Shown one piece after another: positions 11,849 through 63,931 of a stretch of DNA of 64,000 bases (position 1 is its first letter; each line of letters opens with the position of its first letter). The translations under genes and the position numbers were made by a program. The DNA is taken from NCBI GenBank assembly GCA_964628065.1, contig CAZVLM010000001.1, positions 9,357 through 73,356 of the forward strand. Reading direction: 5' to 3'. Below the pieces are notes generated by a model. The model was not told the origin of the DNA, searched no databases, and saw nothing but the letters and a program-made list of their open reading frames with translations. Source of the stretch: an uncultured Candidatus Saccharibacteria bacterium. Its GTDB lineage: Bacteria > Patescibacteriota > Minisyncoccia > Phycocordibacterales > UBA1006.

Positions 11849-12952
11849 TTATTTCAAAACAACCTTCCCATTTTTAAGTATCAAAAACCCCTCCCTCTCC
11901 AACCCGCTCACAATAGTTTCAATTCTATCCTTATCATCAGAAAGACTTTCCAATTTCTCTTCGAGCTTCTCAATCAAGAGCTTTTTCTTTTCTAAAAGAA
12001 TTTCCAAAATCTTTCCGCGAATCTCGCGATTACTTCCTTCAAATTTTGATTGCTTGGTATAGTGCCTACTTTTCTTATTAGGATTAGGAATCGATTTTCC
12101 TAAATACGACCCGTAGTCCATGAGCGCCCAATACCATTCACGAGGGTTTTCTTTGTCGACAGTTTTTTCTATGAGTTTTAGAAGTTCCCTATCATGCACC
12201 CCAAACACACCCCGCACTTCGTGTCGACCCTCTCTAAAAGAGAGGGTTTGCTCCGATTGGAGTTCGGTCTCGACGGAGACTGCCCTCTCTTTTAGAGAGG
12301 GTGCCACGCGAAGCGGGCGGGTGTGTTTTGACTGGGACTCCGAGAAAAAATGATGCAAGTACACTCGTCGAATATTTGTCTCAATCATCGAGACAGGCTG
12401 ATTGTATGCAAACGCAGAAATCGCTCCCGCTGTATACGGACCGATTCCTGGTAGTGAAAGAATATCTTCATACGTCTGGGGAAATTTTCCTTTAAATCTT
12501 TGCATAATAATTTCCGCTGACCTTTTCATGCGAATTGCCCTCGAATTGTATCCAAGCCCTTTCCATAGCCGAAGTACGTCCGACTGCTTAGCCTCTGCAA
12601 GTGCCTTCACTGTTGGAAATTCCTTCATCCACTTATTGAAAAAATCTACTACTCTGTCTACTTGTGTCTGCTGAAGCATAATCTCCGAAACGTACACATT
12701 GTACGGCTTCGTATTCTTTCTCCACGGCAACTCGTGGCGTCTATTTGCATGATAATAATCCCAGACAGTTTTTTGGAATTTTTTGAGGTCGGAAGGCTTC
12801 ATGTTGGCAATTATACCAGAAACGAAAATCGCCAGACTTCCTTTAGGAAGTCTGGCGATTATTTTACAGTTGTACAAAGAATTACTCAGCCAACTCCTGG
12901 CCGATAAGCGCGCCGCGTCCGCCGCTGTGCACGTAGTCGTCAGAAAACTCAA
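11849..12952 (-). CDS. HhH-GPD DNA glycosylase (MutY/Nth-like). Likely true start is the ATG at 12802. It carries a ~40-aa in-frame insertion encoded by a GC-rich palindromic element.
   Basis: LPWRKNTKPYNVYVSEIMLQQTQV...LPGIGPYTAGAISAFAYNQPVSMIETNIRRV gives the HhH-GPD signature. Residues ~209-251 (KHTRPLRVAPSLKERAVSVETELQSEQTLSFREGRHEVRGVFG) are encoded by element D. No Fe-S Cys cluster is present. Confidence 0.6.
   Translation of the reverse strand: MSFLTTTCTAADAARLSARSWLSNSLYNCKIIARLPKGSLAIFVSGIIANMKPSDLKKFQKTVWDYYHANRRHELPWRKNTKPYNVYVSEIMLQQTQVDRVVDFFNKWMKEFPTVKALAEAKQSDVLRLWKGLGYNSRAIRMKRSAEIIMQRFKGKFPQTYEDILSLPGIGPYTAGAISAFAYNQPVSMIETNIRRVYLHHFFSESQSKHTRPLRVAPSLKERAVSVETELQSEQTLSFREGRHEVRGVFGVHDRELLKLIEKTVDKENPREWYWALMDYGSYLGKSIPNPNKKSRHYTKQSKFEGSNREIRGKILEILLEKKKLLIEKLEEKLESLSDDKDRIETIVSGLEREGFLILKNGKVVLK
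12203..12329. repeat. GC-rich palindromic mini-element (copy D), in frame inside the glycosylase gene
   Basis: Terminal inverted repeats AAACACACCCCGCACTTCGTG / CACGCGAAGCGGGCGGGTGTGTTT. Two internal hairpins: CCCTCTCTAAAAGAGAGGG and CCCTCTCTTTTAGAGAGGG. Confidence 0.7.
12827..12860 (-). terminator. Perfect 15-bp stem hairpin (AATCGCCAGACTTCC-TTTA-GGAAGTCTGGCGATT) followed by a U-tract on the minus strand
   Basis: Inverted repeat read directly from the sequence. It lies downstream of the ORF ending at 12882 and ~25 nt upstream of the glycosylase ATG at 12802. Confidence 0.5.
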
Positions 12953-24574: not shown

Positions 24575-24690
24575 AGTTCTCAGTTCTGGCGACACCTACT
24601 CTCCCTCTTACGAAGTACCATTGGTGTAGCGGCGCTTAACGACTCTGTTCGAAATGGGAAGAGGTGTGACCACCGTACTAAATCACCAGA
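24575..24690 (-). rRNA. rrf: 5S ribosomal RNA
   Basis: The reverse complement reads ..GGTGGTCACACCTCTTCCCATTTCGAACAGAGTCGTTAAGCGCCGCTACACCAATGGTACTTCGTAAGAGGGAGAGTAGGTGTCGCCAGAAC, with helix I closing as GTTCTGGTG / CGCCAGAAC. Confidence 0.75.
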
Positions 24691-24799
24691 ACAGAGAACT
24701 TAATGAGAATTGTGTATAATACAGACTTATATTTTCATACTGACACATTGTGAAAATGTGTTTACTAGAATTTCTTTAACTCTTTACCCTTTGATAAAA

Positions 24800-28205
<3,406 letters not shown>

Positions 28206-31038: not shown

Positions 31039-32574
31039 TTAAGGCAAAACTGTTATCTGCTTAACAAGTGAATTGTTCGCTTCATTCGATTCATTTACTA
31101 AATTGTATCCCCCAGTTGTGCCCATTGCATAGTCATCCACTCGAACTGTAAGTCCAAAAGTTCCACTTACTCCTAATATGTTTGGCGTCGTAGACTGATA
31201 CACGTCCACATCATACGTCTGCCCCACCGCCAGCGTAACAGGATTCATTAATTGCTGTGCGCCATAACTTACGCCATTTTTAAGGAAACTAATCTGAGTT
31301 CCGCGCGGAAGGGTTGCCGTCGCACTGCCAATATTTTTAATCGTTGCATGCACCTTAAAGTTGGTATTAGGTGTTGGTTCTTTCGTCGGGTCGATGATAA
31401 CTCGTACATGCGGAGATGAGGGGGTCCATGTGAAGTCTTCTACGATTAGGTCGGGTTTTGTGATCGAAACAGGGAAATTTGTACATGGTGCAAACTTTTG
31501 AATGCGAGTATTTCCTCCGTCCCCCACATAAACATTTCCATAACTATCTATGGCAACACTAAACGCTCCCCTGAACTGCCCGTCTGCTGAACCATACGTT
31601 CCAAATTGAGTAAGGTAAATACCATTTCCTGTAAATTTTTGGATACGTGAATTATTCCTATCCACAACATACACATTGCCGACTTGGTCTGTCGCAATAC
31701 CGAATGGTTGATTAAATTGACCATTGCCACTACCGTATGTTCCCCATTTACTTATGTATGCTCCGGAAGATGTAAATTTTTGGATACGGTTATTTCCCGT
31801 ACCAACACTATCTGCAACAAAAATATTTCCGAAGATGTCTGCGGCAATACCGAGATTTCCTTGAAACTGACCGTTTCCAGTACCGTACGTTCCCCACTTA
31901 CTTAAATAAACTCCATTTGAATTAAATTTCTGAATTCTGTAATTACCTGTATCTGATACATAAATATTTCCCATGGAATCAATTGCAATTCCCCAGGGAT
32001 TTTTAAACTGTCCATCTGCAGAACCATAAGTTCCCCACTGGGTTATATAGGTACCAGTAGAAGAAAACTTCTGAATACGATGATTAGCACTATCTACAAC
32101 GAAGATATTTCCAAAAGAGTCTACTGCAATACCTTCCGGCATGGCAAATTGACCATTTCCGGAACCACTTCCTCCAAACTGACTAAGATATGTACCTCCT
32201 GAGGAAAACTTTTGAATAAACCCCGTGGTACTGTTATCTGATACATAAACATTATTTGTTTGGTCAACAAAAACCGCACCAACGGAACCAGGGAACAATC
32301 CATTTCCAGAAAACCCAACTCCTCCCCACTTTGTAACAAACTTATACCCACTCGCCGGACATGATAACGGAGCAGTAACCACCGGCCCAGTTGGAATACC
32401 TGCCGGTGTCGGCGTGTTTTGAATAGAGGCAATCTGATTATCCGACAATTTTGTAACTGCGACAGCCCGGTATAACGAAGCGGCATTACTCCCCTGGTAA
32501 TTTTTAACTACTAAAAACGCTCCAGCCGTGATGACTGCGAGCGCAAAAACTGCGAGTGTTAGTTTCTTTTTCAT
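31039..32574 (-). CDS. Secreted NHL-repeat beta-propeller protein with C-terminal CARDB-like domain (paralog 1)
   Basis: Signal peptide, repeated ..GNIYV.D..N.RIQKF.. NHL motifs, and a C-terminal PDLIVEDFTWTPS...NTNFKVHATIKNIGSATA (CARDB-like). Confidence 0.65.
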   Translation of the reverse strand: MKKKLTLAVFALAVITAGAFLVVKNYQGSNAASLYRAVAVTKLSDNQIASIQNTPTPAGIPTGPVVTAPLSCPASGYKFVTKWGGVGFSGNGLFPGSVGAVFVDQTNNVYVSDNSTTGFIQKFSSGGTYLSQFGGSGSGNGQFAMPEGIAVDSFGNIFVVDSANHRIQKFSSTGTYITQWGTYGSADGQFKNPWGIAIDSMGNIYVSDTGNYRIQKFNSNGVYLSKWGTYGTGNGQFQGNLGIAADIFGNIFVADSVGTGNNRIQKFTSSGAYISKWGTYGSGNGQFNQPFGIATDQVGNVYVVDRNNSRIQKFTGNGIYLTQFGTYGSADGQFRGAFSVAIDSYGNVYVGDGGNTRIQKFAPCTNFPVSITKPDLIVEDFTWTPSSPHVRVIIDPTKEPTPNTNFKVHATIKNIGSATATLPRGTQISFLKNGVSYGAQQLMNPVTLAVGQTYDVDVYQSTTPNILGVSGTFGLTVRVDDYAMGTTGGYNLVNESNEANNSLVKQITVLP

Positions 32575-32609
32575 ACCTCTATCATATCCCTAAGCTTTTA
32601 TAGAGTCAA

Positions 32610-34181
32610 TTAAGGCAAAACTGTTATCTGCTTAACAAGTGAATTGTTCGCTTCATTCGATTCATTTACTAAATTGTATCCCCCAGTTGTACCCATTGCA
32701 TAGTCATCAACTCGAACTGTAAGTCCAAACGTGCCAGCTGTTCCGAGAATGTTCGGAGTCGTAGACTGGTACACATCTACATCAAACGTTTGACCCACCG
32801 GAAGCGTAACAGGATTCATCAATTGCTGCGCACCGTGACTTACTCCATTTTTAAGGAAACTTATCTGAGTTCCACGCGGAAGCGTTGCAGTCGCACTACC
32901 GATATTTTTAATCGTTGCATGCACCTTAAAGTTAGTGTTCGGGGTCGGTTCTTTTGTTGGATCAGTAATAATTCGTACGTGAGGAGATGAGGGAGTCCAT
33001 GTAAAGTCTTCTACAATTAGGTCAGGTTTAGTAATACTTAATGGAACTGAAGGGATTCGAACGGGAGTACACGGAGAAAATTTTTCAATTCGGTTATTAG
33101 CTGAATCTGAAACATATATATCTCCTTGGGGACTAACAGCAATACCTACAGGAGCTCTAAACTGACCATTACCATAACCACTACTTCCCAACTGAGCTAT
33201 ATAAGCTCCATTCTGATCAAATTTCTGGACGCGCTCTTGATAATTATCCACCACATAAATATTTCCATAAGAATCAACATCGATACCTACTGGATCCATA
33301 AATTTTCCATTTCCAACATATCCCCTGCTACCGATCTGTGAAAGATATTGCCCTGTTGAGTTAAACTTTTTAACCCCATAACCAGTAAGGCTCGTGATAT
33401 AAATGTTTCCCGCTGTATCAAGAAATACATCGTTGTCTACACCTGTTGGATTTGAAAATTGCCCGCTTGCAGAACTTCCCGTCCCAAACTGGCTTAAATA
33501 TCCTCCATTCGACTTAAACTTTTGAACACGATTATTATACCTATCAACAACATAAATATTTCCCGCTGTATCGATCGCAATACCTCCGGGGCCATTAAAT
33601 TGTCCATTATTAGCGCCAAGCGTTCCCCATTGGGTAATATAATTTCCCTGAGAATCAAATTTTTCAACTCTATTGTTACCAGTATCAACTACATAAACAT
33701 TTCCTGTCATATCAATTGCAATGCCTCCTAAAGAGTCACCTAATGCGAAATTTGGAACCTGAAATTGTCCATTCGCTGATCCTTGCGTTCCCCACTGTAA
33801 TATATATTGACCACTTGAATTAAACTTCTGAATACGATTGTTACGAGCATCATGAACATAAACATCCCCCGATGAATTAACGGCTATATATCCGGGGATA
33901 GCGAACTGGCTATTGCCTGAACCATAGACGCCCCACTGAGAAACATAATTATACCCGCTCGCCGGACATGATAACGGAGCAGTAACCACCGGCCCAGTTG
34001 GAATACCTGCCGGTGTCGGCGTGTTTTGAATAGAGGCAATCTGATTATCCGACAATTTTGTAACTGCGACAGCCCGGTATAACGAAGCGGCATTACTCCC
34101 CTGGTAATTTTTAACTACTAAAAACGCTCCAGCCGTGACGACTGCGATCGCAAAAACTGCGAGTGTTAGTTTCTTTTTCAT
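32610..34181 (-). CDS. Secreted NHL-repeat beta-propeller protein with C-terminal CARDB-like domain (paralog 2)
   Basis: Same architecture as paralog 1. The first ~78 aa and last ~140 aa are near-identical to it at the nucleotide level, while the central repeats are divergent. Confidence 0.65.
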   Translation of the reverse strand: MKKKLTLAVFAIAVVTAGAFLVVKNYQGSNAASLYRAVAVTKLSDNQIASIQNTPTPAGIPTGPVVTAPLSCPASGYNYVSQWGVYGSGNSQFAIPGYIAVNSSGDVYVHDARNNRIQKFNSSGQYILQWGTQGSANGQFQVPNFALGDSLGGIAIDMTGNVYVVDTGNNRVEKFDSQGNYITQWGTLGANNGQFNGPGGIAIDTAGNIYVVDRYNNRVQKFKSNGGYLSQFGTGSSASGQFSNPTGVDNDVFLDTAGNIYITSLTGYGVKKFNSTGQYLSQIGSRGYVGNGKFMDPVGIDVDSYGNIYVVDNYQERVQKFDQNGAYIAQLGSSGYGNGQFRAPVGIAVSPQGDIYVSDSANNRIEKFSPCTPVRIPSVPLSITKPDLIVEDFTWTPSSPHVRIITDPTKEPTPNTNFKVHATIKNIGSATATLPRGTQISFLKNGVSHGAQQLMNPVTLPVGQTFDVDVYQSTTPNILGTAGTFGLTVRVDDYAMGTTGGYNLVNESNEANNSLVKQITVLP

Positions 34182-37433: not shown

Positions 37434-38402
37434 TTATTGAGTCTTAACAGCCACAAGTCGCGCTCTCCGAATATATGAAGTTCCATTTGGCCACGAACCC
37501 CAAAGTAAGTCATAAGTACTTACGGTAGTAACTTGAACTTTTTTTAATGCATACCACGAACCAAACGTGCTGGTATTTGAATACACTATTCCATAAGCAA
37601 TCTCAGAAGTATCCCTCATGATTTGTGCGCGCACTCCTGCGTCAACCGTTGGATTGTATGCTTCCAAATAACCTTGGAGTAAGTAATTGCCTGGTGGAAG
37701 AGTTAACGATACGCGCACTTGAAGAGTTTGCGTAGTAATACTAGAGATTGGCTCCATTTCCGCGTAATAAACTTGAGGAATAGCATCAGCCCCTGTCGGA
37801 CCAGTAACGCCAATTGCGCCACTCAATCCAGTATTGCCTGGCAATCCTTGAGGGCCGGTTGGGCCTTGGATTCCTGCAATACCGGTCGGTCCTGTCGGAC
37901 CGACCGAGCCAGCTAATCCGTCCGTTCCGGACGGACCCGTTGCGCCAGTAATACCAGTTGCACCAGTTGGGCCTTGGGCACCCATTGGACCGATTGCACC
38001 CGTAGGTCCCACCATGCCATTACCTGAAAAAAGTGCATACGGAACACTCAGAAGTTCTGTGGTTCCCATATCCATAAAATTCCCTCCCCCATTTTGATCA
38101 AGAAATACCTGTAAATATTTAAATCCTGATCCCCAATCAACCGTTGCAAGATTGCCACTACTACCAATTTGGGTCGTCACCAATCCGAACTGGTTAGTGA
38201 TACTAGAAACAATTTCACTGTAGACAATCGTTCCTGTTGATGATGCTTCATGAATAACAAATTTCAGTGTGATCACGCGATTTGCAATAATAACACCTTG
38301 TGCATCCCGCACTACTGCTTGATAATTCATTTTTTGAGGAATCTGAGATTTTAGAAGAATATGCAACATTCCCAATAAGGCGACAAATGTAATTTTTTTC
38401 AT
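37434..38402 (-). CDS. Collagen-like triple-helix-repeat protein with globular N-terminal and C-terminal domains
   Basis: A ~75-aa run of uninterrupted G-X-Y triplets ([74 protein letters not shown]) and a signal peptide. Confidence 0.6.
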
Positions 38403-51069: not shown

Positions 51070-51300
51070 CCTCACCCCCAGCCCCTCTCCAACACACCCG
51101 TCACTCGCTCCGCTCGTGTACACCCTCTCTAAAAGAGAGGGTTGGCTCCGTCGAGATTATGTACCAATAGAAACTACCGCTTATCTCATAGAGTTAAGCG
51201 GTAGTTTCATTTCAAAATTGAGTCTCGATGTCTACCCTCTCTTTTAGAGAGGGACGCTCGGCGAAGCCGGCGGGGTGTGTTTGTCCGTCGGGTGAGGACA
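51070..51300. repeat. GC-rich composite palindromic element (copy E) with nested inverted repeats
   Basis: Outer IR CCTCACCC / GGGTGAGG. Inner TIR ACACACCCG.. / ..CGGGGTGTGT. Hairpins CCCTCTCTAAAAGAGAGGG, CCCTCTCTTTTAGAGAGGG and AAACTACCGCTTA..TAAGCGGTAGTTT. Confidence 0.7.
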
Positions 51301-51303
51301 AAC

Positions 51304-51330
51304 AAAAAACCGCCCGAAGGCGGTTTTTTG
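51304..51330 (-). terminator. Terminator of the S-layer-like gene (AAAAAACCGCC-CGAA-GGCGGTTTTTT)
   Basis: Perfect hairpin with U-tract immediately downstream of the gene end. Confidence 0.65.
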
Positions 51331-53292: not shown

Positions 53293-53483
53293 AATTAAAA
53301 TTAATTTTAATCATCCTTCCTTATTAAGGGGAAAGAAGTCGTACACGATTCAACGTCGACTTATTAGTGTTGAATCATATGTGTACTATTTTATATTTCT
53401 ATGTTTTGAGACCCACCACTATTATTTGCATAATACTGATCGATAACACAGAAACATTGTGAAGTGTATCTAACCCGTCGGTT

Positions 53484-53600
53484 AGAACACATCACAAGAA
53501 CACACCCGCCCGCTTCGCGAGGCACCCTCTCTAAAAGAGAGGGTAGACCATCGAGATTTTTTTCAGGAAGGAACATTCTTGTGATGTGTTCTTTTCTGAC
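53484..53600. repeat. GC-rich palindromic half-element (copy F) bracketed by a 16-bp inverted repeat
   Basis: ACACACCCGCCCGCTTCGCGAGGCACCCTCTCTAAAAGAGAGGG, flanked by GAACACATCACAAGAA ... TTCTTGTGATGTGTTC. Confidence 0.6.
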
Positions 53601-53959
53601 GCGAAAAGAAACACCGTTAATAACAAAATAAACAAAAGCTAAAAAACTTCTAAGTTTCATTTATTTCTATCTATTTTGTTATCAAGGAATTGGTTTCCAA
53701 CAGATTGAAATCTATCGGAAATCCACAAGCACCGGACCATCATACCATAATCGACCATTCCTTTGCAATACCTAGCCATAAAAGGATTTACGCGAGATAT
53801 TGTCGCAGGAATTGACGCTATGAAATGTGTGGAGTTCGGATAGTATATCGTGCCTATAAAAACACGCAACTTACTTGTCTATACCAGATGACGCACAAAT
53901 GCCCCGCACATTACGGGACATTTGCTAATAACATTCTTTACATTTATGTCAAGTATCTC

Positions 53960-54817
53960 CTAGTTTTTTGAAATCTGATAGGTTGTCCATCTCTTGTTCC
54001 CCTCTTTCCTGACCACATTCATTTCAACTAATGTATTCACTTCTCGTTGGAGGGTCTTATCACTGCAATCGGTCACCATCGACTTGATATCTGCCAACGT
54101 ACAAACTCCTTTCGATTTAATGACATTTAGAATTTCCTGCTTTCTATCGAGCTTATCACTTATTTTTAAAGGTGATTTTATGGTGTCTTTTTGAAATGTC
54201 GTTTTAATTTTAGATATATCTTTTGATATGTCGTTTTGATGTAATAATGTCGTTTTGATGTCGTTTTGATGTCGTTTTGATTGATACCGAGCAACCACTT
54301 CATCAAAGGCGGTGTCGCGCATGATATCTCCGGAAATTAATGGTTGAGACATGGGCACCGATGAAACGATAAATGCTTGTTCTTGCGTGGCTAATTTTGA
54401 TGCTTCGTCAGAAAATATATCTACCAACTTTGTCAATTCGTTTACAATGATATCGGCGTTCATTTGTGATATGTGGTGTGAAATTGATCCGATATGAACC
54501 AGTGATATCACTTGATCAAGTCGTATTGAAACACGTGTTAACGAACCTCGAGAAACACCCTCTTTTGATGTTAATAACCCATACGCGGTTGTGAGTAACT
54601 CCAGCGAATCTTTCCGCAATGACTCTGTAAGGGCTAATGATTTATCCATCACGTCTGTAACCAGATAAATGGCCGCCACAATTTTCTCGATCTTTTTAAC
54701 GGATACAAAGAGCGTCTTTTCTAACGGATTAACGAATAAACCATATAAAATATGAGATTTATTAGAAATGTCGTTTTGATTATTCGCATGTCCTTTTGTA
54801 ATGTCGTTTTGATTCAT
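53960..54817 (-). CDS. Hypothetical DNA-binding protein with C-terminal winged HTH and QNDI peptide repeats. Its gene carries iterated 11-13-bp DNA motifs.
   Basis: C-terminal ..VCTLADIKSMVTDCSDKTLQREVNTLVEMNVVRKEGNKRWTTY.. is wHTH-like. HQNDI repeats are encoded by ATGTCGTTTTG repeats. Confidence 0.45.
   Translation of the reverse strand: MNQNDITKGHANNQNDISNKSHILYGLFVNPLEKTLFVSVKKIEKIVAAIYLVTDVMDKSLALTESLRKDSLELLTTAYGLLTSKEGVSRGSLTRVSIRLDQVISLVHIGSISHHISQMNADIIVNELTKLVDIFSDEASKLATQEQAFIVSSVPMSQPLISGDIMRDTAFDEVVARYQSKRHQNDIKTTLLHQNDISKDISKIKTTFQKDTIKSPLKISDKLDRKQEILNVIKSKGVCTLADIKSMVTDCSDKTLQREVNTLVEMNVVRKEGNKRWTTYQISKN
54196..54281. repeat. Iteron-like direct repeats of ATGTCGTTTTG(AT): 5 copies, including 3 perfect tandem 11-mers at 54247..54279
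   Basis: Copies at 54196, 54228, 54247, 54258 and 54269, read directly from the sequence. Confidence 0.6.
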
Positions 54818-54844
54818 ATGGAGCGTAAAAAATGTCCTTTTGTT
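54768..54844. repeat. Second cluster of the ATGTCSTTTTG motif (4 copies) spanning the start codon of the wHTH gene and its upstream region
   Basis: Copies at 54768 and 54801 (ATGTCGTTTTGAT), and at 54788 and 54832 (ATGTCCTTTTGT). The last copy lies upstream of the start codon at 54817. Confidence 0.55.
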
Positions 54845-54886
54845 CTATAAACGACACTATAAACTTAAAATGTCTTTTATGCAATG

Positions 54887-55013
54887 CCCTCATCCGCCCT
54901 TCGGGCACCTTCTCCCTTTGGGAGAAGGCTACACTTTCGACTTCAGTTGGCACCAATAAAAATGTCTGCCCCTCTCCCTTTGGGAGAGGGTGCCCGAAGG
55001 GCGGGAGAGGGTT
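54887..55013. repeat. GC-rich palindromic mini-element (copy G) immediately upstream of ftsK
   Basis: TIRs CCGCCCTTCGGGCACC / GGTGCCCGAAGGGCGG. Internal hairpins CTTCTCCCTTTGGGAGAAGG and CCCTCTCCCTTTGGGAGAGGG. Confidence 0.65.
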
Positions 55014-55051
55014 GGAATATAAGGGTTTTTACTGATATACTTATAGGACAA

Positions 55052-57313
55052 ATGGCAAAAAAAGATCTGAAACAAAAGAAAAATTCTGTTGAAAAAGCTC
55101 CAGAGGAATCTAGCAATCCTCGTATTAAGCGATCTATTATCGCGATCATTTTACTTGCGATTACGGTAGTTATTATCCTCGGAGCCTTTGATGCGGCAGG
55201 TATTGCCGGTCATTTTATCTATCATTCGGTGCTTAAATTTTTGGTAGGATTTGGTGTTATCTTAGTGCCTATCTTCCTTGTCGTTTATGCGGTAAACCTT
55301 CTTAAGAACCAGCCTCACGAGTGGTCATGGGTTGAGTATGTTAGCTCTTCCCTTTTGATGATTTCCATCCTTGGTTTCATCCAAATTATTTCTCCAGGAA
55401 TTAAAGGCGGTGGCGTTATTGGGTACGGCATAGGAACCGTTATGACGAAGATTTTTGATGTCTATGCCGGCGCAACAATATTAGGTGCCGTTGCACTTAT
55501 TTCGACATTGGTACTTATTGATGAGGAATTAAGAATGCCTGCGTTCCTTAAAAATATGTTTTCTAAGTCTTCAAAAGAAGAGTCATTTGTTGATGAAGAT
55601 TTTGTACTCACAAAAGCAGATTTGAATGAATTACCACCAGCTCCAATAGCGGACCCTCTCCTTGCAGGAGAGGGTGGACGGCGCCAGCCGCCGGGTGAGG
55701 TTGTGAAAGCTGAAGTACCCGAAGAACCTCGGATTGCTAAAAAAGAAAAAGTTGAGGACGAGTTCATTACTGCAAATGCCGTATTTTCAGAAACATATGA
55801 ATACCCTCCAACCAGCCTCCTTGGTCAGTCATCAGGCAAGCCATCCGTTGGAGACATCAAAGCGAACGCGAACTTGATCAAGCGAACCCTTTTGAACTTT
55901 GGAATTGATGTGGAAATGGATGAAGTTTCAATCGGGCCAACCGTGACTCGCTACGCTTTGAAACCAGCGGAAGGTATTAAGCTGACCCGAATTCTCGCAC
56001 TCAAATCTGACCTTGCACTCGCCCTTGCCGCCCACCCTATTCGAATCGAAGCCCCTATCCCTGGCAAGTCATTAGTAGGTATCGAAATTCCGAACAGAAC
56101 TCTTGAGAATGTAGGTCTTGGAACCCTGCTTGATGAAGACTCATTCCAGAATTCTCCTAACCGTCTTCAGGTTGCCCTTGGAAAGGGGGTGGCTGGAAAG
56201 TCTTACTTTGCAAACTTAGCAAAAATGCCGCACCTTTTGATTGCCGGAACTACAGGATCAGGAAAGTCGGTTACTATGCACAACTTAATCCTGTCGCTCT
56301 TATATAAGAACGGACCTGAAGACCTCCGGGTTATTATGATCGACCCAAAACGAGTAGAACTTACTCTTTATAATGATATCCCCCACCTTCTAACACCTGT
56401 TATTAAAGAATCAAAGAAGGCTATCCTTGCCCTTAAATGGGCCGCGAAGGAAATGGAACGACGGTATGACATTCTTGAAAATTGCTCATGCCGAGACATT
56501 CAGTCCTATCATGCAAATATCCAAGACCCCTACTATGCTAAGACCAAGAAAAAAAGTCGCGATGACGATGATACAGATACCAAGGCGCCGGAGCGAATGC
56601 CTTACATCGTAGTATTTATTGAAGAGTTGGCCGACATCATGCAGGCATATCCTCGCGAATTGGAAGCCGGTATTGTCCGACTTGCCCAAATGTCCCGAGC
56701 CGTGGGTATTCACCTCATCCTTTCAACCCAGCGACCATCCGTGAACGTTATTACCGGACTTATTAAAGCCAATATTCCATCACGATTAGCACTTCAAGTA
56801 GCCTCTCAGATTGACTCTCGAACAATTTTGGATGCGCCAGGCGCCGAATCGCTTCTTGGTAAGGGAGATATGCTCTATCAAGGTGCTGACATGTCTAAGC
56901 CTGAACGTATGCAGTGTGCAAACGTAGATGAAAACCAAGTTAAGAAAGTCGTTGCCTTTATTAAGAAGCACAACGTTTCCCTTCCTGACGAAATCGCCTT
57001 GGGCGAAGTATTGGATGATGACCGATCAATTGTTTCAGCTAATCTTGAAAGCGACGAGGACGACGAACTTTATGAAGATGCTCGAGCCTGCGTTATTGAG
57101 GCCGGCAAAGCTTCAACCAGCTATATTCAGCGAAAATTGAAGGTTGGCTACTCTCGAGCAGCGCGCCTCATCGACCTTTTGGAGGAACGCGGAGTGGTTG
57201 GTCCTGCGGACGGCGCGAAACCTAGAGAAGTACTTAGTGGTGGATCTTCTCCTGAAATTGGGTTATCCACAACCGATGTTATTGATAGATTAAACGAGGA
57301 GAGCGAGGTATAA
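55052..57313 (+). CDS. ftsK: DNA translocase FtsK (start reassigned to the ATG at 55052)
   Basis: N-terminal TM helices, Walker A GTTGSGKS, Walker B/RecA-like motor, C-terminal gamma wHTH (..YIQRKLKVGYSRAARLIDLLEERGVVGP..). The track ORF start at 54884 reads through repeat element G. Confidence 0.9.
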   Translation: MAKKDLKQKKNSVEKAPEESSNPRIKRSIIAIILLAITVVIILGAFDAAGIAGHFIYHSVLKFLVGFGVILVPIFLVVYAVNLLKNQPHEWSWVEYVSSSLLMISILGFIQIISPGIKGGGVIGYGIGTVMTKIFDVYAGATILGAVALISTLVLIDEELRMPAFLKNMFSKSSKEESFVDEDFVLTKADLNELPPAPIADPLLAGEGGRRQPPGEVVKAEVPEEPRIAKKEKVEDEFITANAVFSETYEYPPTSLLGQSSGKPSVGDIKANANLIKRTLLNFGIDVEMDEVSIGPTVTRYALKPAEGIKLTRILALKSDLALALAAHPIRIEAPIPGKSLVGIEIPNRTLENVGLGTLLDEDSFQNSPNRLQVALGKGVAGKSYFANLAKMPHLLIAGTTGSGKSVTMHNLILSLLYKNGPEDLRVIMIDPKRVELTLYNDIPHLLTPVIKESKKAILALKWAAKEMERRYDILENCSCRDIQSYHANIQDPYYAKTKKKSRDDDDTDTKAPERMPYIVVFIEELADIMQAYPRELEAGIVRLAQMSRAVGIHLILSTQRPSVNVITGLIKANIPSRLALQVASQIDSRTILDAPGAESLLGKGDMLYQGADMSKPERMQCANVDENQVKKVVAFIKKHNVSLPDEIALGEVLDDDRSIVSANLESDEDDELYEDARACVIEAGKASTSYIQRKLKVGYSRAARLIDLLEERGVVGPADGAKPREVLSGGSSPEIGLSTTDVIDRLNEESEV
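55652..55700. repeat. GC-rich palindromic mini-element (copy H), in frame within the ftsK linker region
   Basis: GGACCCTCTCCTTGCAGGAGAGGGTGGACGGCGCCAGCCGCCGGGTGAGG encodes ..DPLLAGEGGRRQPPGEV.. Confidence 0.6.
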
Positions 57314-63121: not shown

Positions 63122-63931
63122 TTAAACACTTAGATTAAAGAATTTTTGTGTATTTTTAAGGAGTTGCTGGCGCACATCTTCCTCATCCATATTTTTAAGT
63201 TCCGCAACCTTCTTCGCAACTTCTATCACCATCCATGGCTCGCACGGTTTTCCTCGATACGGTGCAGGCGCTGCAAATGGCGCATCTGTTTCTATCATGA
63301 GTGATTCAAGTGGTACTGCCTTTATCATTTCGTCATAATCTCGTGAAAAAGTAATCGGTCCATCAACGGAAACAGTAAAACCTGCGGAAACAATTGCTTC
63401 CATACATTCTTTTGATCCTGAGAAGAAATGGAAATTGGCACGCAGTGGTGCGGAATCCTCCTCTTGCCAAGAGGAGGTGCCGAGGCTCTGCGAGGCGGAG
63501 GAGTTTTCAAGAATTTTTAATGCATCATAATACGCATTATCACTCCCCTTCGATGCGCGCACATGAAGCATCAGTGGCTTGTTTACTTTCTTTGCGAGGG
63601 TAATATGCTTCTTAAAAATATCTTCTTGAATCTTTCGAGATTCGGGAGTGTCTTCATGAAAATAGTCGAGTCCGGTTTCGCCAATGGCGACTACTTTAGG
63701 ATTGAGGGCAAGTTTTTCTAGTTCACTCCAGCCACCATCCTCACCCGGTTCGCTGCGCGAACCACCCTCTCCACTATCGTGGAGAGGGTTACTGCAATAG
63801 CATGGATGGATTCCCACTGTTGCCCAGCAGGTGTCAGGATACGCCTCAGCGATCTCAACCGCTGTTTTGGAGGTCTCAAGCCCTGTTCCAACCGTGATCG
63901 TCGCCACACCCAAATCTTTCATTTTAGCCAC
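63122..63931 (-). CDS. TatD-family metal-dependent hydrolase carrying two in-frame GC-rich palindromic insertions
   Basis: ..TVGIHPCY...VVAIGETGLDY...LMLHVRAS...FHFFSGS...IETDAPF.. are TatD motifs. Extra segments SNPLHDSGEGGSRSEPGEDGGW and NSSASQSLGTSSWQEEDSAPLRA are encoded by the elements at 63737..63790 and 63448..63505. Confidence 0.8.
   Translation of the reverse strand: MAKMKDLGVATITVGTGLETSKTAVEIAEAYPDTCWATVGIHPCYCSNPLHDSGEGGSRSEPGEDGGWSELEKLALNPKVVAIGETGLDYFHEDTPESRKIQEDIFKKHITLAKKVNKPLMLHVRASKGSDNAYYDALKILENSSASQSLGTSSWQEEDSAPLRANFHFFSGSKECMEAIVSAGFTVSVDGPITFSRDYDEMIKAVPLESLMIETDAPFAAPAPYRGKPCEPWMVIEVAKKVAELKNMDEEDVRQQLLKNTQKFFNLSV
63448..63505. repeat. GC-rich palindromic mini-element (copy I1), in frame inside TatD
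   Basis: CCTCCTCTTG-CCAAGAGGAGG hairpin plus GCCGAGGCTCTGCGAGGCGGAGG. Confidence 0.6.
63737..63790. repeat. GC-rich palindromic mini-element (copy I2), in frame inside TatD
   Basis: CCTCACCC GGTTCGC-TGC-GCGAACC A CCCTCTCC-ACTATCGT-GGAGAGGG. Confidence 0.6.

Follow-up and report, generated by a model that had tools for sequence, protein, structure and literature searches.

A REP/REPIN-like hairpin repeat between putative divergent promoters as the probable source of a spurious FtsK extension in a Patescibacteria genome

We report on a 125-nt nested palindrome, element D, that lies just upstream of the cell-division gene ftsK in a 64,000-nt stretch of a Patescibacteria genome (hereafter the window; all positions refer to it). 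The best explanation of its sequence is that D would be one copy of a non-autonomous nested-hairpin repeat, similar to the repetitive extragenic palindromic (REP) sequences of other bacteria and to their paired form, the REPINs (REP doublets forming hairpins). In our reading, to which we give a probability of roughly 0.85, this copy was recently acquired, is not translated, lies upstream of the ftsK promoter and is the cause of a false N-terminal extension of the FtsK protein as called.

The called FtsK open reading frame (ORF) is longer than any of its closest orthologues, and the public record holds the same 809-aa protein, called as a gene on an NCBI contig of 78,096 nt. An internal ATG at 55052 lies exactly 56 codons past the called start at 54884, and the FtsK_4TM, alpha, FtsK_SpoIIIE (motor) and gamma domains identified with Pfam are all present in the protein that begins there. 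The closest FtsK homologues come from metagenome-assembled genomes (MAGs) of Patescibacteria/Paceibacterota, measure 731-753 aa and carry the N-terminus MAKK(D/E). When the 11 closest orthologues were aligned (P0002-P0007, P0009, P0010, P0012, P0013 and P0019), all started with MAKK or MTK at the residue encoded at 55052, and the extension was found in 0/11. The false start itself is a product of the junction: its ATG (54884-54886) combines the last A of a conserved ATGCAA flank with the TG at the junction. D can be read through in the ftsK frame without meeting a stop codon, and the in-frame open stretch 5' of the true ATG grows from 3-24 codons, with no ATG, in loci without the element to 61 codons with it. 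A stop-free element preceded by a junction ATG thus leads gene callers to extend FtsK by 56 codons, and the alignments support the view that these residues are spurious and caused by D. An earlier note on this DNA, made from its letters, had proposed such an extension and reasoned that orthologues sharing the longer N-terminus would speak against it. None of the 11 shares it, so the proposal stands; the five related loci without D described below and the 809-aa call on record agree with it. By itself, this finding is an ordinary annotation artefact.

Related genomes show the site in its empty state. We compared three loci whose FtsK is 95% identical to that of the window (L001-L003) and two at 78-79% (L004 and L005); common to the window and the relatives is the gene order Wzy_C, PG_binding_1, a gene of 282-285 aa on the opposite strand, ftsK, a 137-aa gene and recA. 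From the divergent gene to ftsK there are 123 nt in L002, L004 and L005 versus 234 nt in the window, and in an alignment of the six loci D appears as a clean gap in all five relatives, with flanks conserved up to the element. Some 16 variable bases (GATTGTCTTTTTAAGC in L002) have given way to D, which is not flanked by a target-site duplication: the window flanks read ...ATGCAA-TG and TTGGAA..., and the relatives carry GATTGTCTTTTTAAGC between them, with no direct repeat.

Sequence motifs on either side place D between two putative promoters. The right end of D (55011) directly abuts TTGGAA, a candidate -35 box of ftsK that reads TTGTNN in the relatives, and this box is followed after 18 nt by an extended -10, TGATATACT; the pair is the single plus-strand site returned by a consensus scan. 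CTGATATACT is invariant across the six-locus alignment, and the nine orthologous upstream regions that we examined read CTTGTN, 17-18 nt and TG(A/G)TATACT, 10-23 nt before the ATG. In the window the -10 ends 10 nt before the ATG at 55052, so that the ftsK leader would be very short, a few bases long; no conserved Shine-Dalgarno sequence is seen between -10 and ATG in the aligned upstream regions. On the other strand, the divergent 285-aa gene has a promoter-like site of its own, TTGCAT/TATAGT, within a conserved block that ends 2 nt before D. Its -35 matches the consensus at 3/6 positions and the consensus scan did not report it, but it is plausible as a promoter of this gene, weaker than that of ftsK. 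If these assignments are right, D would occupy a short variable spacer between two back-to-back -35 boxes.

Transcription of ftsK would then start from TTGGAA/TGATATACT, 3' of D, and D would be neither translated nor transcribed with ftsK. With a promoter footprint (55012-55041) between D and the ATG, and with the upstream gene divergent, D most likely lies upstream of the ftsK transcription start and outside the ftsK mRNA. The same two observations speak against the suggestion of the earlier note that D places a strong structure in the ftsK 5' untranslated region (UTR). For D to do so, transcription would have to begin upstream of 54887, and a hairpin of -85 kcal/mol could then modulate mRNA stability or translation. 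Such a hairpin would indeed be very stable as RNA, with a C(UUCG)G loop in its mini-hairpin on the plus strand, the ftsK start has been placed by conservation and not by mapping, and REPs and MITEs (miniature transposable elements with inverted repeats) elsewhere are commonly transcribed together with genes and affect the stability of mRNA (PMC3733652, PMC10969869). However, the sole strongly conserved promoter-like motif of ftsK lies 3' of D in 9/9 loci, the divergent upstream gene offers no read-through, the conserved block to the left of D reads as a promoter of the other strand, and a spacer of 123 nt in all in the relatives leaves scant room for a second ftsK promoter. We therefore consider a role in the 5' UTR distinctly unlikely.

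Any effect of D on ftsK would be exerted at the DNA level, and here we can only speculate: an A/T-rich stretch just 5' of the -35 gives way to D, the divergent promoters come to lie ~127 nt apart instead of 16, and a cruciform could be extruded in a negatively supercoiled region. In E. coli, REPs bind gyrase and IHF (integration host factor). D may likewise have been co-opted to tune ftsK and the 285-aa gene, as an insulator, as a site for a binding protein or as a cruciform or supercoil sink, and its position exactly between back-to-back -35 boxes, where divergent transcription accumulates negative supercoiling, would suit such a function, as would its DNA fold of -43 kcal/mol. Co-option nonetheless appears unlikely: the closest relatives do without D, which is hence not required; purifying selection against insertions elsewhere in a compact genome explains the placement equally well; and the protein-binding role is purely hypothetical.

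The conserved promoter also bears on the possibility that the extension is real, FtsK in this lineage being translated from the ATG at 54884 with an acquired N-terminal tail encoded by the repeat. In favour of it, the frame is open and begins with an ATG, and other copies of the repeat family are evidently translated within MutY, TatD and the FtsK linker (see below), so that repeat-encoded peptides can be tolerated. Yet the tail is found in no orthologue, relatives with a 95%-identical FtsK do without the DNA altogether, the conserved -35 and -10 would fall within the supposed coding region, no Shine-Dalgarno-like sequence lies 5' of 54884, and the ATG is an accident of the junction. Translation of the tail is thus extremely unlikely, and we retain the reading of an untranslated element. 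False extensions of 10-30 residues, such as ...RVFTDILIEQ-MAKK, are also present in further publicly called FtsK homologues (P0008, P0015-P0018, P0020-P0022, P0027, P0046 and P0051). As the frame is open across the conserved promoter region, these extension peptides of the clade appear to be translated promoter DNA.

Table 1. Coordinates of element D, of the other copies of the repeat family and of the associated genes and putative promoter sites in the window.
Feature	Coordinates	Strand	Description
Element D (copy D)	54887-55011	.	125 nt, nested palindrome; two-armed, two ~42-nt hairpin units inverted around a 41-nt centre; between putative divergent promoters
D left unit	54887-54928	+	CCCTCATCC, mini-hairpin, AC, 9-bp hairpin
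D left outer segment	54887-54895		CCCTCATCC
D left mini-hairpin	54896-54906		GCCC-TTCG-GGC, 4 bp
D left 9-bp hairpin	54908-54928		CCTTCTCCC-TTT-GGGAGAAGG, perfect
D centre	54929-54969	.	AT-rich, 41 nt, CTACACTTTCGACTTCAGTTGGCACCAATAAAAATGTCTGC
D right unit	54970-55011	-	inverted copy of left unit
D right 9-bp hairpin	54970-54990		CCCTCTCCC-TTT-GGGAGAGGG, perfect
D right mini-hairpin	54992-55002		GCCC-GAAG-GGC
D right outer segment	55003-55011		GGGAGAGGG
FtsK ORF as called	54884-57313	+	809 aa, begins MPSSALRAPSPFGRR
ftsK coding sequence from the supported start	55052-57313	+	753 aa, MAKKDLKQ...
56-codon extension, supported as spurious	54884-55051	+	peptide PSSALRAPSPFGR; from ORF calls, orthologue starts and empty sites
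Putative ftsK -35	55012-55017	+	TTGGAA; consensus scan; TTG kept in 9/9 loci
Putative ftsK extended -10	55033-55041	+	TGATATACT; TATACT at 55036-55041, TG before it
Promoter-like site of divergent 285-aa gene	54856-54884	-	TTGCAT (54884-54879), 17 nt, TATAGT (54861-54856)
Copy A	12200-12333	-	complete, two-armed; in frame (45 aa) in gene for MutY-like adenine glycosylase
Copy B	51070-51297	.	228 nt, three-layer; between terminator hairpin and start of Wzy_C gene
Copy C	53497-53560	+	single unit, intergenic; apical loop of conserved hairpin in conserved 660-nt spacer
Copy E	55652-55700	+	single unit; in frame in FtsK linker, peptide PLLAGEGGRRQPPGEV
Copy F	63736-63790	+	single unit; in frame in minus-strand TatD-family DNase gene, peptide PLHDSGEGGSRSEPGEDGG
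MutY-like gene	11849-12805	-	hosts copy A

The palindrome with terminal inverted repeats and inner hairpins that the earlier note had reported at 54887-55013 is confirmed, with limits right to within 2 nt. A repeat search returns arms of 51 nt that are 78% complementary and in which both inner hairpins are perfect. The 16-nt inverted end, CCGCCCTTCGGGCACC, has two exact matches in the window, one per strand (54894-54909 and 54989-55004), against 0.16 expected, and 0/100 shuffles reach two. D folds at -85.3 kcal/mol as RNA (z -9.1) and at -42.9 kcal/mol as DNA (z -7.7), with 0/200 shuffles equally stable in either case; its G+C content is 59%, compared with ~41% for the window. The mini-hairpin presents a UUCG-type loop on one strand (C(UUCG)G on the plus strand) and a GAA-type loop on the other; the former is unusually stable in RNA and the latter in DNA. 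The centre of D bears a weak resemblance to those of copies B and C (TAGAC..TCGAGA). D is open in 3/6 frames, where random 125-nt windows have 1.4 open frames on average.

Three further interpretations of D were rejected. An intrinsic terminator does not fit, as no T run follows either hairpin end on either strand and the consensus scan did not report one. A small protein encoded by D was dismissed, the ORF at 54832-55035 and those on the minus strand being mechanical. A chimeric assembly is discounted by the length of D, which is shorter than a read, by flanks collinear with the relatives and by a centre like those of other copies in the window. No Rfam 15 family matches D at gathering or permissive thresholds; the hits, all far under gathering, are generic long-hairpin miRNA precursors and whalefall-1 (15 bits).

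D belongs to a family of nine hairpin modules in six elements of the window (Table 1). The arms follow a common plan: an outer segment of the CCTCACCC/AACACACCC type, a small GC hairpin with a TTCG/GAAG-type loop, A(C), CCCTCTC...GAGAGGG and an inner TAGAC..TCGAGA-like segment. The unit of ~42 nt consists of CCCTCAYCC, the 4-bp mini-hairpin, AC and a 9-bp hairpin, CCYTCTCCC/GGGAGARGG. At three of the six elements the left junction reads TTTTWA. Copies B and C are missing from L004 and L005, and the spacer at the site of B is ~200 nt shorter in L004. Copy E is common to the 95% relatives, in which it is the only family member found, and is not in the 78-79% relatives, whose 17 kb of available sequence hold no member at all. 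With six copies in the window and three of them inside ORFs, the earlier note was also right in speaking of a repeat family that can create or extend ORFs. A scan of metagenomes for the hairpin of the A, B and C type, CCCTCTCTAAAAGAGAGGGT, returned 10 loci, mostly plain terminator hairpins and none with an outer hairpin; two of the 10 consist of CCTCACCC plus the hairpin only.

The surroundings of copies B, C and D have conserved features of their own. Next to copy B, which was inserted just past it, a terminator hairpin after the PG_binding_1 gene (51303-51329) is kept in the window, L004 and L005 with compensatory stem changes (CCGCCCGAAGGCGG, CCACCCCGAAGGGTGG and CACCCTTGCGGGTG). The 660-nt non-coding spacer that holds copy C (53293-53959, from the PG_binding_1 gene to the 285-aa gene) is conserved in L002, L004 and L005, with long invariant blocks and hairpins, among them one with compensatory changes (53484-53500/53576-53592) and a conserved stem of ~20 bp near 53625-53690. 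It has no Rfam or tRNA/tmRNA match and may be an undescribed RNA or regulatory region. Adjoining D, the motif AATGTC(G/C/T)TTTTG(A/T) occurs at least 8 times in 54188-54880; some copies fall inside the 285-aa ORF and code on the minus strand for NQNDI repeats, and others are found in the divergent ftsK spacer. The 285-aa protein has no Pfam match, and the motifs may form an operator array for it.

Copies within genes are best documented at mutY. When the MutY-like protein is aligned with a solved homologue (8uuc_A), residues 24-157 and 203-294 find their counterparts and residues 158-202 (45 aa) have none; this insert coincides exactly with copy A, and the 274-aa homologues P0123 and P0124 lack it. 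Many MutY-like proteins of Patescibacteria carry inserts of varied length at this one position, after NIRRV(Y/F)(L/I)HHFF. In the DNA, L144 lacks any element at the site, and L141-L143 each have a different member of the family. In L141 the left arm is that of copy A in the window, and the centre and right arm differ; the element of L142 is two-armed, and its right arm is almost the same as copy E from the FtsK linker; and L143 has a unit of the same type as copy F from tatD. Near-identical peptides and DNA of copies E and F also occur in the mutY inserts of P0149, P0177, P0150 and P0131. Judged by these sequence matches, the family is widespread in Patescibacteria, its units recurring in different genes of different genomes. 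The presence of different members and of mosaic copies at one site points to recurrent insertion and/or replacement: a preferred site may have been hit several times, copies may have replaced one another by recombination, or both. In other bacteria, REPs within genes have been reported to cluster in those for replication and repair (Di Nocera et al., PMC3733652); the genes that host this family are mutY, tatD and ftsK.

The unit also occurs far outside Patescibacteria. We scanned one genome per species (596 Gb) for the 23-nt core of the D arm, CCGCCCTTCGGGCACCYTCTCCC (54894-54916), and found it exactly in more than 120 genome stretches (L006-L125), where ~0.03 matches are expected by chance. 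The matches listed extend over alpha-, gamma- and deltaproteobacteria and other phyla. Among them, isolates of Rhizobium, Mesorhizobium, Devosia, Xanthomonas, Lysobacter, Pseudomonas and Geomonas carry the core, as does a complete planctomycete chromosome; the MAG hosts listed include Acidobacteriota, Verrucomicrobia, Chloroflexi and Actinomycetota, with the reservation that MAG assignments can be wrong. The plan is always the same, with CCCTCAY before the core and GGGAGARGG after a variable loop, and inverted pairs also occur. A BLAST search of plasmids found the ~42-nt arm of D at ~90% identity in 66 plasmid or chromid records, of which Rhizobium accounts for 55, and a BLAST search of GenBank phages gave no match. 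The core is present in 67 IMG/VR stretches (L145-L211), but many of these may be proviral predictions that include host DNA, and we do not claim carriage by phages. Its own translation, PSSALRAPSP in one frame and GEGARRADEG on the other strand, makes it a likely source of many spurious ORFs.

Variation among these units follows the structure. In 204 extracted units the mini-hairpin varies (GCC, GGCC, GGCGC, GGCCGC, GGTTCGC, GTCGCC and others), remains self-complementary and is followed by AC. Among 53 distinct non-canonical variants of the mini-hairpin, 55% fold at <= -5 kcal/mol versus 15% of shuffles. Such compensatory variation indicates that the structure is conserved, beyond the sequence alone.

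Short repeated palindromic units, their inverted doublets and insertion without target-site duplication are hallmarks of REPs and REPINs (PMC3116915, PMC3733652). REPs, bacterial interspersed mosaic elements (BIMEs) and REPINs are likewise dispersed, short, GC-rich imperfect palindromes, single or in inverted pairs that fold as one hairpin (Bertels and Rainey, 2011, PMC3116915; Di Nocera et al., 2013, PMC3733652). The family in the window shares with them a repeated palindromic unit of the short kind (20-40 nt) and inverted pairing, copies D, A and B being two-armed and D folding as one hairpin, and D shares with them the lack of a target-site duplication. The unit described here differs in having two successive hairpins and a 5' CCCTCAYCC that repeats stem sequence; moreover, REPIN populations are described as lineage-specific and vertically inherited, whereas this unit sequence is common to several phyla.

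The copies within genes are reminiscent of the Rickettsia palindromic elements (RPEs). RPEs are described (PMC3733652, PMC1779305) as palindromic repeats of ~100-150 nt in a reduced, host-dependent genome, found in frame in functional genes and between genes, as here. Insertion in frame into intact genes of this type is seen in the MutY-like gene, the FtsK linker and TatD. The Rickettsia lineage is unrelated, however, and our elements are GC-rich in an AT-rich Patescibacteria genome; RPEs are also stated to end in CGTC (PMC3733652), and no such tag is consistently present here. Judging by analogy, the family is REP/REPIN-like in architecture and RPE-like in its in-frame insertions. We do not file it under the tagged REP super-families, in view of the inconsistent tag, under the RPEs, whose host and composition differ, or under the DDE-type MITEs, given the absent target-site duplication.

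Rhizobia carry intergenic repeats that are described as palindromic mosaics of unknown function (PMC2573895), with RIMEs (Rhizobium-specific intergenic mosaic elements; Osteras et al., 1995, cited in PMC2573895) presented as specific to Rhizobium. The D unit may correspond to the rhizobial RIMEs or Sm-repeats; unlike RIMEs as described, it occurs in several phyla. In our literature searches, whose coverage was incomplete, we found no paper on REP-, MITE- or RPE-like repeats in Patescibacteria or the Candidate Phyla Radiation (CPR), and a full-text search for the 9-mers of D returned only unrelated primer or target sequences.

How such a family would spread is best framed in terms of its hairpins. 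Its copies would move as single-stranded DNA hairpins through a tyrosine transposase, either a REP-associated tyrosine transposase (RAYT) or one of IS200-IS605 type, or through a comparable hairpin-recognizing enzyme encoded elsewhere. They would survive only where tolerated: between promoters, after terminators, in the hairpin loops of RNA or DNA and in the in-frame loops or linkers of proteins. Mobilization of single-stranded hairpins by RAYTs has been proposed for REPs and REPINs (PMC3116915, PMC3733652), and for the present family we regard a RAYT-like route specifically as a tentative possibility.

Several observations weigh against, or limit, the reading of D as a recently inserted REP-like element. 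A Pfam scan of the ~60 ORFs of the window, which is part of the genome, detected no transposase family, and with that no Y1 transposase (PF01797) of the RAYT kind, whose gene usually has REPs on its flanks. The GTAG/CGTC tag of most described REPs is not consistently beside the hairpins: after the inner hairpin the arms read TAGAC, CTACAC, GCAGAC or CAGTC, so that GTAG/CTAC is present in some, in inconsistent orientation, and no GTAG/CGTC tag is visible in units from other phyla. D replaces 16 nt and is not a clean insertion, which makes recombination or gene conversion from another copy an alternative route; the mosaic arms of the window copy and L141 at mutY point that way, and mosaic copies are equally compatible with spread by recombination. 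The empty-site relatives differ by at least 5% in FtsK, so the timing can be given as after that split. The ftsK promoter is assigned from conservation and consensus matching. Finally, a deletion in the relatives could mimic an acquisition at this single locus, although five empty loci spanning 78-95% identity would make it unlikely.

A DDE-type origin was also considered, in which D would be a classical MITE, the deletion derivative of a DDE-transposase insertion sequence (IS) moved through its terminal inverted repeats. Bacterial MITEs (Correia/NEMIS, RUP, ERIC, Nezha; PMC10969869) are likewise small non-coding inverted repeats beside genes that alter promoters or transcripts and create or extend ORFs, and D has exact 16-nt inverted ends, a length of 125 nt, no coding capacity and multiple copies. 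MITEs, however, are bounded by terminal inverted repeats, flanked by target-site duplications and derived from DDE insertion sequences, while at D no duplication is found and ~16 nt are replaced instead. Partnerless single units are common both here and in other phyla, as expected of hairpin-unit repeats and not of elements bounded by terminal repeats, and the window shows neither an insertion sequence nor, among the ~60 ORFs scanned, a transposase. A classical MITE is thus very unlikely, and a hairpin-unit repeat of the REP/REPIN type is preferred.

The practical lesson for annotation is that a GC-rich repeat free of stops, next to a start codon, has lengthened a publicly called, essential division protein by 56 false residues. 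The findings also indicate that streamlined genomes of Patescibacteria carry active or recently active REP-like repeats, with copies tolerated only at neutral positions and adding 15-45 residues to MutY, TatD and FtsK, an echo of the RPEs. A single unit is nearly base-identical in an AT-rich, ultra-small Patescibacterium, in alpha- and gammaproteobacteria, in Geobacter-type bacteria, in a planctomycete and in further phyla assigned from MAGs; within Patescibacteria its variants recur at one site of mutY and are read in frame in proteins of DNA repair and DNA segregation. This could reflect a hairpin-mobilizing mechanism that is widely shared or moves horizontally, and an undescribed RPE-like layer of CPR protein evolution, an idea that we consider rather doubtful. 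If it is true, exchange between episymbionts and their hosts would be one possible route by which the unit came to be shared. If not already described, the near-identity of the unit to repeats of distant phyla offers a handle on how hairpin repeats spread.

Other features of the window lie apart from the family. A gene for a collagen-triple-helix-repeat protein (37434-38402, minus strand) contains GC-rich perfect hairpins (37883-37935) that derive from its Gly-X-Y coding repeats and do not belong to the repeat family. Two tandem paralogous NHL-repeat/CARDB genes (31039-34181, minus strand; 511 and 523 aa) share repeats of 263-300 nt at 89-95% identity. In 24584-28189 (minus strand), a group I intron (25122-25338) splits the 23S rRNA gene, which is adjoined by a 5S rRNA gene; this is typical of CPR genomes.

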